A DNA stretch of 64,000 bases from Alphaproteobacteria bacterium (lineage in GTDB: Bacteria > Pseudomonadota > Alphaproteobacteria > Bin95): the NCBI GenBank assembly GCA_965205265.1, contig CBDBGH010000003.1:3968001-4032000 (forward strand), written 5' to 3'. The notes below the pieces were generated by a model. That model worked only from the letters and a program-made list of their open reading frames with translations. It ran no database searches and was not told the DNA's origin. The position numbers and the translations under genes are program-made. This document shows positions 57,087 through 60,088 of this stretch, one piece after another (within the stretch, counting starts at the first letter, position 1; each line of letters opens with the position of its first letter).

Positions 57087-57290
57087 ATGGCTGAACGAAA
57101 GGCAGCTTTCAAACGAGCACCGGTGCGGCCTCATCTGCAGAAGCTCCTCGAAGACGCCAAGAAAGTCACCATGACGGAAGAACAACTGCGCGAACAGAAG
57201 GCGAGCTTCGTATATGGCAACGCGCCGCAGGGATCGCGGATAACCAAGGAATCCGCACGAGAGTCTGTGGATCGAATTCGACTCTTCTAG
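57087..57290 (+). CDS. Small protein, putative Fic antitoxin
   Basis: 67 aa, GGAGA RBS, MTEEQLREQKASFVYGN...ITKE; immediately upstream of the Fic gene. Confidence 0.7.
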   Translation: MAERKAAFKRAPVRPHLQKLLEDAKKVTMTEEQLREQKASFVYGNAPQGSRITKESARESVDRIRLF

Positions 57291-57336: not shown

Positions 57337-57933
57337 ATGTTCATTCTGGAGCAGGAGGATCCGGACCTTTTCAGCCGTATTCAGGAACATAATCTGAATC
57401 GCCAATATGACCTTATGGCGAATTGCATAGAGATAGGGCTTTTGAAAGGACCAGCATCGTTTGACAAATACCTACTCTGGTCATTGAACCACGTAGCAGT
57501 AGCAAATATCTCGCAATTCGGCGGACGGTTTAGGCGAGAACCGATCTATGTCGGGAACCACATTCCGCCGCACTTCAACGACGTTTCGGATTGGATGGAC
57601 CGGTTCATCTCGACAGTTCAGGAAAATTGGTACATTTGGACTCCAACCGAATTGGCTGCTTACGGACTTTGGCGTCTGAATTGGATTCACCCGTTCATCG
57701 AGGGTAATGGAAGAACCGCCAGAGCGGCATCGTACTTTCTCCTCTGTGTTAGGTCTGGGGCCCTTTTGCCGGGAAGAAAAATTGTCCCGGAAAGAATTAG
57801 GCAAAACAGAGAGGGGTACAACGCGGCTTTGACAGCGGCCGACCGCGCTTGGGATTTAGGTCATTTGGACTTTGGTGAAATGGAAAATTACCTCGCCAGT
57901 CTTCTTGCGGAGCAATTACAAGACATCGATTAA
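57337..57933 (+). CDS. Fic/Doc family protein
   Basis: Canonical HPFIEGNGRTAR motif; markedly lower GC than the backbone. Confidence 0.92.
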   Translation: MFILEQEDPDLFSRIQEHNLNRQYDLMANCIEIGLLKGPASFDKYLLWSLNHVAVANISQFGGRFRREPIYVGNHIPPHFNDVSDWMDRFISTVQENWYIWTPTELAAYGLWRLNWIHPFIEGNGRTARAASYFLLCVRSGALLPGRKIVPERIRQNREGYNAALTAADRAWDLGHLDFGEMENYLASLLAEQLQDID

Positions 57934-58105: not shown

Positions 58106-58705
58106 TCAGAACCACACGGTGGCCACCGACACGACGGTGACGATGGCGAGGACGAGATTGACTGTGGACCATTGCGCGTCCGTTCTGAGCATCCGTCCGA
58201 GCACTGCCCCACCCAGGCACCACAGGACCATCGCCCCCATTGCAGAGCAGCCGAAGGTCGCCGCCAGCAACAGGGCCAGCTCCAGCGAGCTGCTGGTGAA
58301 CCCGGCATAGGTGCCCGCGGCTGCCAGCCCCATCATCCAGGCCTTCGGAGCGAGAAACAGGACGGCCAGCCCCGTCGCGAACCCCATGGCCCGTTCTCCG
58401 CCGGCATCCTCCGACGCGCTGGGCGCACCGCTTCGGAAGATCCGCCAGGAAAGCCATACGAGATAGCCGGATCCCAGTATCTTGATCGCGAGTTGCAGCG
58501 ATGGCGCCGTCTGCAACAGGGCGGAGAGGCCGAAGGCTCCGGTTGCCGCGATCGACGCCAGGCCAACGGCGACCCCGGACGCCAGAGGCAGGCTTCCGAC
58601 GAGACCGTGGCGGACCCCGGACGCCGCCGCCAACAGTGTGCTCGGCCCCGGCGTGATGGTCGTCGCGACAGCCAGCACCGCCAGCGATATCAAGAACTCC
58701 GGCAT
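58106..58705 (-). CDS. LysE/RhtB family amino acid exporter
   Basis: ITPGPSTLL..SG..HG, KILGSGYLVWLSW, PKAW; GGGAGG RBS. Confidence 0.88.
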   Translation of the reverse strand: MPEFLISLAVLAVATTITPGPSTLLAAASGVRHGLVGSLPLASGVAVGLASIAATGAFGLSALLQTAPSLQLAIKILGSGYLVWLSWRIFRSGAPSASEDAGGERAMGFATGLAVLFLAPKAWMMGLAAAGTYAGFTSSSLELALLLAATFGCSAMGAMVLWCLGGAVLGRMLRTDAQWSTVNLVLAIVTVVSVATVWF

Positions 58706-58735: not shown

Positions 58736-59236
58736 CTATTGCGGATGCCACGCCCGGAGTTCTCCCCGCGGTGCGGGGCTGTCCGGGATGAGGGGCATAT
58801 GGTGGACCCGGTCCGCCGGTTCGCCCGCTACCCGGACGCCGACCGCCGCCGCCGGGCTGAAGCCGAGCGGCTCGTAATAGGCGCGCTCGCCGACAAGGAA
58901 GACATGGGGCCAGCCGGCGGCGCGCGCCGCATCGAGAGTGCGGCGGAGCAGCGCCCGGCCGATTCCCCGGCCGCGAAGTTCCGGCTCCACCGCGAGCGGG
59001 CCGAGCAGCAAAGCGCGGGCGCCCGCATCCCCGACCGCGATCTGTGTCTGCTGCACGCTGCCGACCGGGCGCCCGTCCATCCACGCGGCGAAGGCAAGCG
59101 CCGGGCAGGGCGGGTTGCCGGCGCGGAGCCGGTAGGAGGATTTGCTCCTGCGGTCCCGCCCGAACACACGGTCGAGCAGCGCTTCCACTGCGGGCCGGTC
59201 GGCGGATTCGAGCGGGGAAATCTGGAAAGGGGACAT
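58736..59236 (-). CDS. GNAT N-acetyltransferase (YhbS-like)
   Basis: LLDRVFG, SYRLR, LLGPLAVEP..RGRGIG, LVGE..YY..LGF. Confidence 0.9.
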   Translation of the reverse strand: MSPFQISPLESADRPAVEALLDRVFGRDRRSKSSYRLRAGNPPCPALAFAAWMDGRPVGSVQQTQIAVGDAGARALLLGPLAVEPELRGRGIGRALLRRTLDAARAAGWPHVFLVGERAYYEPLGFSPAAAVGVRVAGEPADRVHHMPLIPDSPAPRGELRAWHPQ

Positions 59237-59299
59237 GGTCGGACAGCTCCCGGACGGACAGGACGGCGTCGATGCCGGCCGGAGCCGTGTCCGGCCGGT

Positions 59300-59332
59300 T
59301 CAGCCGCGTCGTCGTCGGAGCCAGCGAACCAT
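59300..59332 (-). CDS. Putative leader peptide MVRWLRRRRG (uORF)
   Basis: ATG GTT CGC TGG CTC CGA CGA CGA CGC GGC TGA, 63 nt upstream of the GNAT start; followed by a 9-bp hairpin at 59275-59298. Confidence 0.65.
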   Translation of the reverse strand: MVRWLRRRRG

Positions 59333-59339
59333 GGGAATG

Positions 59340-59369
59340 AAATTAGCCGCTTTCGCCTGTCGTCGGCAA
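59340..59369 (-). promoter_or_regulatory. Putative sigma70 promoter for leader-GNAT-LysE
   Basis: TTGCCG-N18-TAATTT, 7 nt before the uORF ATG, consistent with a leaderless transcript. Confidence 0.5.
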
Positions 59370-59407
59370 GGGCAGGTCGCCGGCCCGCGATGTCGGCCGC
59401 GGCGCCA

Positions 59408-60088
59408 TCAATCCAGCCAAACGGGGTCCTTCAGGCCGGCGATGAACGCCTTGTGGGCGGCCAGTTCCTCCGGCGTCGGCGCATGGGGCCGGGGCGGACG
59501 GAAGGGATTGCCGGCTCGCGTTTTCTCCACGGTTCCGGTATCGCCGCCGGCGCCGGCCTGGAACGCAAGGCCCGGCTGGCGGCCTCCGGTCAGGTGCAGA
59601 TAGACCTCCGCCAGCAGGCGGCAGTCGATGAGCGCGCCGTGCAGCGTGCGAACCGAGAGGTCGATCTCGAACCGCTTGCAAAGCGCGTCCAGGCTGTTCG
59701 GCGCCCCGGCAAAGCGGCTGCGCGCCATCTGCAGCGTATCGACCAGCCGCTCCCCGGCGAGCGGCGGCAGGCCGAGCCGGGCGAATTCGGCATTGAGGAA
59801 GCCGGCGTCGAAGGGCGCGTTGTGGATCACCAGCGGCGCATCGCCGACATATTCCAGGAACCCTCCCGCAATCTCGGCGAAGCGCGGCTTGCCGCGGAGG
59901 AAGTCTTCCGACAACTCGTGGATGCGATAGGCTTCCTCCGGCATGTCCCGTTCGGGATCGATATAGCTGTGCCAGTGCGAGCCGGTCGGAACGCGGTTCA
60001 CCAGCTCCAGAGCGCCGATTTCCACGACGCGGTGCCCGTCAGCCGGGTCGAGCCCGGTGGTCTCGGTGTCGAGGACAATCTCACGCAT
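59408..60088 (-). CDS. dnaQ: DNA polymerase III subunit epsilon
   Basis: LDTETTG, HNAPFD, SLDALC, HGALID, TGGRQ. Confidence 0.96.
   Translation of the reverse strand: MREIVLDTETTGLDPADGHRVVEIGALELVNRVPTGSHWHSYIDPERDMPEEAYRIHELSEDFLRGKPRFAEIAGGFLEYVGDAPLVIHNAPFDAGFLNAEFARLGLPPLAGERLVDTLQMARSRFAGAPNSLDALCKRFEIDLSVRTLHGALIDCRLLAEVYLHLTGGRQPGLAFQAGAGGDTGTVEKTRAGNPFRPPRPHAPTPEELAAHKAFIAGLKDPVWLD

Follow-up and report, generated by a model that had tools for sequence, protein, structure and literature searches.

In a 64,000-nt stretch of an alphaproteobacterial genome of 5.7 Mb (contig CBDBGH010000003.1; this whole stretch is the window, and all coordinates are positions in it), a short leader precedes a gene for a GNAT family N-acetyltransferase and may act as a ribosome-controlled switch of that gene. 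The leader, the GNAT gene and the genes on either side lie on the minus strand. The upstream neighbour is a dnaQ-like gene, which encodes a DnaQ-like exonuclease of the RNase_T family (59408-60088; Pfam RNase_T, 1.3e-33) and is followed, after a spacer of 171 nt, by GNAT (58736-59236; ATG at 59236). GNAT, the gene proposed to be regulated, encodes a YhbS-like protein of 166 aa (COG3153) recognized by Pfam. The gene for a LysE-family transporter (58106-58705; Pfam LysE, 7.7e-13), which has a GGAGG of its own, lies 30 nt past GNAT.

At the 5' end of the leader a -35-like hexamer, TTGCCG (59364-59369), is separated by 18 nt from a -10-like hexamer, TAATTT (59340-59345), 7 nt before the AUG of an upstream open reading frame (uORF; 59300-59332, with ATG at 59332 and TGA at 59302-59300). 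The uORF has ten codons and a stop (ATG GTT CGC TGG CTC CGA CGA CGA CGC GGC TGA, specifying MVRWLRRRRG*). Its CGA-CGA-CGA run (59309-59317), followed by CGC, is marked out by codon conservation as a candidate sensor. Positions 59302-59322 within the uORF also make up the 5' arm, GGCUCC-GACG-AC-GACGCGGC, of a helix predicted from folding, consensus and covariation to hide the Shine-Dalgarno (SD) sequence of GNAT. An apical 9-bp GC hairpin (59275-59298; folding and consensus) begins 2 nt past the uORF stop. In it CCGGCCGGA (59298-59290) is paired with UCCGGCCGG (59283-59275), no U-tract follows, and the loop and 3' strand together hold a second GGCUCC, which is a possible second anti-SD. The 3' arm of the helix (59237-59270; folding and covariation) includes the SD GGGAGC (59251-59246) and extends up to the GNAT start. 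A preliminary description of the locus had listed the hexamers, the uORF, the CGA triplet, the hairpin lacking a U-tract and the GNAT SD, and each of these was located in the sequence just as described.

No terminator-like site was found in the leader by scanning. Rfam, searched with E up to 10, gave eight matches (E 0.37-5.4), all far below the gathering score and none within 59237-59369. The idea that the leader is a repeat or mobile element was rejected, as it is single-copy in the genome and other matches are only 16-50 nt long and weak (E 0.006 or worse). Metatranscriptome contigs from a relative, mostly 90-95% alike, match the region, but such contigs carry no information on start, strand or level; one spans 59046-59376 and then continues into sequence unlike the window.

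Conservation of the leader and its CGA codons

The GNAT protein is present in 15 of 16 other genomes of the genus. Across the 16 genus members compared, the stretch of ~105 nt that reaches from the ATG of the uORF to that of GNAT hardly varies, and mean column identity is 83% with the variable promoter spacer included; the GNAT proteins are only 59-93% identical, so that the leader is more conserved than the flanking proteins. The DNA 5' of the -10 box is wholly different between genus members, some of which have an extra gene of about 200 codons. A TAnnnT hexamer ends 7 nt before the uORF ATG in 16/16 sequences (6 nt in one of these, L016). Most of them have, by eye, a hexamer of the type TTGCCG, TTGCGA or TGACAA 17-18 nt 5' of this box, with a spacer that varies within the genus. 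As TAnnnT lies at the distance expected for a transcription start, the simplest reading is a leaderless mRNA, the first base of which is probably the A of the uORF AUG or one adjoining it.

Variants of the peptide in the genus include MVRWLRRKRG, MVRRLRRRRG, MVHRLRRRRG, MVSRLRRRRG, MVRWLRRRHG, MVRWLRRRRS and MVERLRRRGD. Since the changes in the uORF are nearly all non-synonymous, the peptide outside the arginine run is not the conserved feature. Within the genus the CGA run shows no synonymous substitution, and the entire uORF has a single one.

CGA is a rare codon in this genome. The preliminary description had noted that it is unusual beside CGC and CGG, and this is borne out by a proxy gene set of 2729 long, high-GC3 ORFs, in which 2.8% of arginine codons are CGA (2.6 in every 1000 codons overall), whereas CGC accounts for 52% and CGG for 32%. 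By usage alone, the chance that RRR is encoded by a CGA triplet is ~2e-5. ARAGORN detected arginine tRNAs with the anticodons ACG (two), CCG (three), UCU (two) and CCU (one); no tRNA-Arg(UCG) was found in the genome by this program. Among the tRNAs found, only tRNA-Arg(ACG), read as ICG, could therefore decode CGA, by wobble between inosine and adenine (I:A). Editing of A to I in the ACG anticodon and the weakness of I:A pairing are established. The genome contains 447 CGACGACGA sites, nine of them within short ORFs having an upstream ATG. A relaxed scan of the same genome for CGA leaders returned 167 matches, which are noisy because the proxy gene set is incomplete; a crude check of these revealed no other convincing CGA-run leader, and the few inspected resemble antisense or internal parts of genes.

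The distribution of the run was examined across the class. A GNAT profile (E ≤ 1e-15) has matches in 208 of 401 alphaproteobacterial genomes, with 150 matches listed and 117 more. From the 150 matches listed, 110 loci were examined (the first 30, entries 31-90 and entries 131-150); one (L092) was dropped as its contig ends before the start codon, leaving 109. A run was counted when at least three consecutive identical codons lay in an ORF of ≤ 70 codons, started by ATG, GTG or TTG and terminated by a stop, within 350 nt upstream of GNAT. Such CGA runs were present upstream of GNAT at 53 of the 109 loci, which fall in 35 family codes (mapped by hand to the profile-match table). They were absent from the reverse complement of the same regions (0/109), from the GNAT genes themselves (0/109) and from downstream of GNAT (0/104). 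Runs of CGC and CGG were found upstream at only one and two of the 109 loci, respectively. Thus a uORF with a CGA run, which the preliminary description proposed to look for upstream of orthologous GNAT genes, is there at about half of the loci, against none in three controls.

The run is also specific to a reading frame. At 48 of the 53 loci the CGA frame can be followed back to an ATG, at most 13 codons away, without meeting a stop; for each of the other two frames this holds at three loci. The peptides range from 4 to 52 aa and share nothing beyond the arginine run (for example, MSASGKLRRR, MTIIRRRR, MLRRRRLHLFVLSL and MRRR). At the 53 loci the run lies 1 to 30 codons past the start and the flanking residues are free to vary. 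CGA runs are concentrated at the best-scoring loci (13/15 at ≥ 200 bits; 3/20 at 140-160 bits). Outside the class the profile finds weak homologues only, and CGACGA was not present upstream of any of the ten non-alphaproteobacterial YhbS-like homologues fetched. Nor was it found upstream of the GNAT paralogue in the same genome (G000:C3:2485233-2485613, outside the window; 92 bits to the profile), which indicates that the leader goes with one orthologue group only. The conserved unit appears to be a short translated ORF with a CGA run followed by the GNAT orthologue, an arrangement that is apparently old within the Alphaproteobacteria. As judged by sequence comparison, the leader is a real, widely conserved cis-regulatory element.

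Exactly two consecutive CGA codons occur upstream at a further 20 of the 109 loci, and in the reverse-complement control at 8/109, so that the loci with two codons are partly due to chance. Two-CGA contexts are seen in L075, L079, L076 and L085, including ...CGA CGA CAA TAG, where the run lies two codons before the stop, and TGG CGA CAT CGA CGA; they may represent forms of the sensor particular to certain lineages.

A functional arginine-rich micropeptide acting in trans would be a different explanation of the uORF. Arginine-rich small proteins do exist in Alphaproteobacteria, such as those of the DUF1127 family described in the available part of PMC10117765, but the wide range of lengths, the lack of anything kept beyond RRR and the predominance of non-synonymous changes within the genus make this very improbable.

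Drug-dependent arrest was raised in the preliminary description as a macrolide option. Leaders of the ermC, ermD or cat type depend on a specific nascent peptide together with a drug and regulate resistance genes, and R/K-x-R/K is a macrolide arrest pattern. A stall at R-x-R might here induce a resistance-type acetyltransferase, plus the exporter. RRR contains the pattern, the peptide of one relative begins MRLR, GNATs include antibiotic acetyltransferases, and the logic of an occupied uORF opening a hairpin that hides the downstream SD is the same. However, it is the codon CGA that is conserved rather than arginine, as the counts for CGC and CGG reveal, and the run moves freely within a peptide of which nothing else is kept. 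In addition, GNAT falls below the cut-off of every resistance family (18.7 bits against 420 for the streptothricin model) and belongs to the chromosomal core, next to dnaQ, throughout the genus. Drug-dependent arrest is thus disfavoured and seems quite unlikely.

Folding of the leader and the modelled effect of a ribosome

The 114-nt leader folds as one long helix with a minimum free energy of -54.2 kcal/mol, compared with a mean of -43.3 ± 3.3 for shuffled sequences (z -3.34); none of 200 dinucleotide shuffles folds as well as the native sequence. The complementarity between the uORF and the SD noted in the preliminary description is recovered in this fold, in which GGCUCC in the uORF pairs with GGGAGC. 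The helix also joins the AUG region of the uORF to that of GNAT, which that description had not mentioned. The consensus fold of the genus has 34 pairs; standard pairs occupy 96.7% of its cells, a share that drops to 24-46% if the partners are shifted by one to three columns. Compensatory pairing across relatives is evident from five consensus pairs changed on both sides among the 16 sequences, a count reached by 1 of 500 shuffles, although the genus genomes are kin and these covariation numbers overstate their independence. For example, in G005 a change of CGA to AAG in the uORF is matched by GUCC to GCUUU on the opposite arm. The closing A-U of the apical hairpin is G-C in two of the 16 sequences, and its loop is variable in sequence.

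Such pairing might mean that only the RNA matters. According to this explanation CGACGACGA would bind a protein or small RNA, or would belong to a fold like that of a riboswitch, and the presence of the ORF would be a coincidence. Nucleotides are indeed kept beyond the needs of the peptide, there being no synonymous variation in the run within the genus, and the run is paired with a probability > 0.5 in 44 of the 53 class leaders. Against this, the frame test favours the CGA frame (48/53), and in each case a stop codon closes the ORF after a short distance. In addition, the run has different pairing partners in different lineages, no Rfam family matches and the -10-like box is fixed at 7 nt from the AUG in the genus. 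An RNA-only element is therefore unlikely.

The consequence of a ribosome on the uORF was modelled by treating it as a block of 27 unpaired nt and calculating the ensemble cost of opening the GNAT ribosome-binding site (RBS; -18 to +13). For the window leader the cost is 16.5 kcal/mol when free, 9.7-10.3 with the ribosome on the CGA run and 11.8 with it at the stop. The 16 genus leaders have mean costs of 17.2 (free), 10.8-11.2 (on the run) and 13.0 (at the stop), and for the 53 class leaders the corresponding means are 12.5, 10.5 and 12.4. In the model the stalled state is cheaper than both the free and the terminating state in all 16 genus leaders, which as kin are not independent. Of the 53 class leaders, 23 become cheaper to open by at least 2 kcal on stalling and two become more costly. 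In the window model a ribosome on the CGA run leaves the apical hairpin closed and the SD in weak local structure. In the same model a ribosome at the stop covers the 5' strand of the hairpin, so that the 3' strand, which carries the second GGCUCC, is free to pair with the SD and does so.

The anatomy of the leader, its codon- and frame-specific conservation and its covarying complementarity have been observed. Where transcription starts, that the uORF is translated, that ribosomes stall on it, that stalling turns the gene on (the polarity) and that supply of Arg-tRNA is the signal are inferred, and would combine as follows. On the leaderless mRNA, in the absence of a ribosome, nucleotides 1-31 of the uORF would be paired with both the SD and the start codon of GNAT as parts of a single long helix, keeping the gene off. 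A translating ribosome would have to decode CGA-CGA-CGA, presumably readable only through I:A wobble by tRNA-Arg(ICG). When charged tRNA-Arg(ICG) is short, it would dwell on the 5' arm with the apical hairpin closed and the SD and AUG free, and GNAT would be translated (plus LysE in this genome). When decoding is fast, the ribosome would reach the stop and cover the apical hairpin on its 5' side; GGCUCC on the 3' side, released in this way, could recapture the SD. After release of the ribosome the long helix would re-form and GNAT would stay off.

With a probability of about 60%, the leader is a ribosome-mediated translational attenuator that senses the supply of Arg-tRNA(ICG), stalling of the ribosome freeing the GNAT SD. 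The stalling switch suggested in the preliminary description is the best explanation, with supply of Arg-tRNA(ICG) most likely to be the signal. The CGA run on the anti-SD arm, its conserved frame, the covariation and the lower modelled opening cost argue for it; what did not survive of the original proposal is the drug option and the link to LysE.

Several observations weigh against the attenuator. The CGA run is itself in the helix, so part of its conservation could be structural. Of the 109 class loci, 36 have no run of even two CGA codons. The run pairs with the last 40 nt before GNAT at only 21 of the 53 loci; elsewhere, folding suggests that it pairs locally and in multi-stem arrangements, and according to these predictions lineages outside those 21 loci must use a different fold. 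Stalling shifts the opening cost by < 2 kcal in 28 of the 53 class leaders. When unpaired probability was calculated with a sliding 27-nt block, there was no consistent opening on stalling (0.34 to 0.25 for the window); opening energy was used instead, and the modelled support rests on it. A generic scan for sigma-70 promoters did not list the two hexamers, which it missed because TAATTT matches TATAAT at only three of six positions. Across the class a strict TAnnnT lies 5-9 nt before the uORF ATG at only four of 53 loci, whereas 19 of 53 have an SD-like motif, which indicates that leaderless initiation is not general. TA shows a positional peak at -14 to -12 in 20 of 52 class loci, and both leaderless and SD-led versions probably exist.

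Rare and frequent arginine codons behaved alike in arginine sensing by Salmonella orf34, according to the available part of that report (PMC6386406), so rarity need not matter. This also favours a constitutive coupling device, in which translation of the uORF melts the helix and a slow dwell at CGA sets the basal level of GNAT, or in which the leader reports general translation capacity or its slowdown. The same anatomy fits such a device, and in the model a block on the 5' arm lowers the cost of opening the RBS whatever the cause of the dwell. However, any slow codon or structure would then do, and yet the run is CGA at 53 of 109 loci in 35 family codes, and the counts contain no run formed by a different rare codon. 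Moreover, runs of codons for a single amino acid are described as a hallmark of amino-acid sensors in the portion of bioRxiv 10.1101/834739 available. Coupling of this kind is considered rather unlikely.

Related switches and the role of the acetyltransferase

The closest described system is that of the polycysteine leaderless short ORFs (sORFs) of mycobacteria, in which a tract of cysteine codons is base-paired to the SD of the gene that follows, and stalled ribosomes have been proposed to block the pairing and so permit translation of that gene (bioRxiv 10.1101/834739, from the part available). Both systems have a run of codons for one amino acid in a short first-cistron ORF, pairing of that run with the downstream SD region, the same proposed logic and an unusually stable leader structure; the polycysteine sORFs are leaderless, and the uORF of the window probably is too. 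They differ in that the run encodes cysteine in Actinobacteria and arginine, as rare CGA, in the alphaproteobacterial window. The polycysteine targets are cysteine-metabolism loci with a measured response, whereas the window target is a GNAT known from its sequence alone. The window leader also adds a stop-proximal hairpin with a possible second anti-SD. With these sequence-level defining features it can be regarded as the arginine counterpart of the polycysteine sORFs.

In Salmonella, orf34 (speFL region) precedes speF and is a short uORF in which consecutive arginine codons are known to sense arginine. In the model proposed for it, a pause at the arginine codons allows a hairpin just past the stop to form and leaves the RBS accessible, and a pause at the stop prevents this (PMC6386406, from its available text). 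The behaviour modelled for the hairpin in the window resembles this model. In contrast, in what is available of its description, orf34 is SD-led, has 34 codons and a conserved peptide core (DUF2618), acts via Rho and RNase G, and uses AGG CGG codons, of which the rarity is irrelevant; its target is ornithine decarboxylase, unlike the GNAT of the window.

Ribosome-mediated attenuators are textbook cases for Trp, His, Leu, Thr, Phe and Ile/Val, and the leu leader uses rare CUA codons. Like trpL, hisL and leuL, the window leader has an ORF rich in codons for the amino acid presumed to be sensed, and the position of the ribosome would select the fold, as it does in those leaders. Classical attenuators use an intrinsic terminator and antiterminator, whereas the window leader has neither a terminator-like site nor a U-tract, so that control would be at translation initiation. 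They may also differ in that the classical operon makes the amino acid sensed, whereas GNAT is not a recognized biosynthetic gene. A leaderless leader ORF is known in the Alphaproteobacteria from trpL of Sinorhizobium meliloti, according to the available part of PMC10117765.

No bacterial arginine attenuator of this type is described in the literature searched. Nor was a CGA-run or arginine leader before a GNAT gene found there, including the main texts of two papers on Sinorhizobium uORFs and small proteins, the supplementary tables of which might list one. Thus, the statement in the preliminary description that this is not a described element holds for the leader itself, but its class of mechanism is known. 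From its sequence, the element would be the arginine case of a type of switch already known, here placed before the gene of a YhbS-like GNAT.

GNAT itself is a generic acetyltransferase of the YhbS-like type. Its Pfam matches are to Acetyltransf_1, _7 and _9, the best PDB matches are 4rs2_A and 4zbg_A (E ~1e-9), whose titles assign no function, and the ESM Atlas yields only generic GNAT/YhbS clusters. Source records name its relatives 'predicted N-acetyltransferase YhbS'. In NCBIfam no model reaches its cut-off. By the logic of a switch responding to shortage of Arg-tRNA, GNAT should relieve a shortage of charged tRNA-Arg, and it might do so as a short N-acetylglutamate synthase (NAGS) or by acetylating an arginine antimetabolite, both of which are hypothetical. 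ArgJ is present in the genome (380 bits), and searches of it revealed no classical ArgA above the cut-off and no short NAGS of the Mycobacterium tuberculosis (Mtb) type. They likewise turned up no ArgR, a gap that an arginine sensor at the RNA level would fill.

That GNAT has no demonstrated link to arginine, as far as its sequence reveals, also counts against the attenuator as an arginine sensor. It reaches the cut-off of no NAGS model (20.6 bits for NF005921) and there is no NAGS among its PDB matches. As classical ArgA exceeds the cut-off in only 1 of the 401 class genomes searched, the NAGS profile test is uninformative.

The most far-reaching proposal is that CGA-run leaders are the arginine-sensing device of the Alphaproteobacteria, that I:A wobble by tRNA-Arg(ICG) is the actual sensor and that the YhbS-like GNAT is an enzyme of arginine homeostasis. 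In the boldest version it would be the missing NAGS that primes the ArgJ cycle; alternatively it might acetylate an arginine antimetabolite or an inhibitor of arginyl-tRNA synthetase (ArgRS) exported by LysE. As a whole this is speculative and doubtful. An arginine leader conserved in 35 family codes of the Alphaproteobacteria would be of interest in a genome where no ArgR was found, and its use of a single specific rare codon offers a clean natural test of whether codon identity (I:A wobble) counts when amino acids are sensed. For the very common COG3153/YhbS-like family it also supplies a regulatory signal, which narrows the search for the substrate of that family.

Neighbouring genes

The preliminary description had treated GNAT and LysE as one operon and as the regulated unit, which comparison of loci does not bear out. 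The dnaQ gene is upstream of GNAT at 15 of the 16 genus loci compared, that of the window included, but LysE is downstream at only 5 of 16 (one of the 16 loci has only ~740 nt of downstream sequence). LysE would thus seem, from gene order, to be a lineage-specific passenger rather than a conserved partner. Its protein is assigned only at the level of the Pfam LysE superfamily. All NCBIfam models remain below their cut-offs, the best being an EamB-type model (52.2 bits, cut-off 193) with a LeuE-type also near; ArgO gives 17.8 bits against a cut-off of 298, and the model for the L-lysine exporter 30.7 bits against 213.65.

Across the class, 50 of the 109 loci have a same-strand ORF within 300 nt downstream of GNAT, with no dominant partner. 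The families represented among these 50 ORFs (loci L058-L167) include DUF1285 (seven), the saccharopine-dehydrogenase type (five) and LysE (two). The saccharopine-dehydrogenase family includes carboxyspermidine dehydrogenase, and a link to polyamines is a possible lead to the substrate of GNAT.

An extra ORF lies between dnaQ and the leader in six genus relatives (L010, L012, L013, L016, L020 and L021), where the spacers are 628-743 nt. It has 202 codons in L012 (L012:2105-2713, minus strand). The start of the extra ORF overlaps the dnaQ stop and its stop is inside the -10 box of the leader. No Pfam family matches the full-length protein. The corresponding part of the window (59343-59408, minus strand) holds a 21-codon in-frame remnant, MAPRPTSRAGDLPLPTTGESG, which fuses the first and last ~10 codons of the extra ORF and looks like the product of a clean internal deletion.

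On the other side, a gene of the Fic/DOC family (57337-57933, plus strand; Pfam Fic, 1.2e-14) is convergent to LysE. It is preceded by an ORF of 67 codons (57087-57290, plus strand) with no match in Pfam, and the two may encode a Fic toxin and its small partner.

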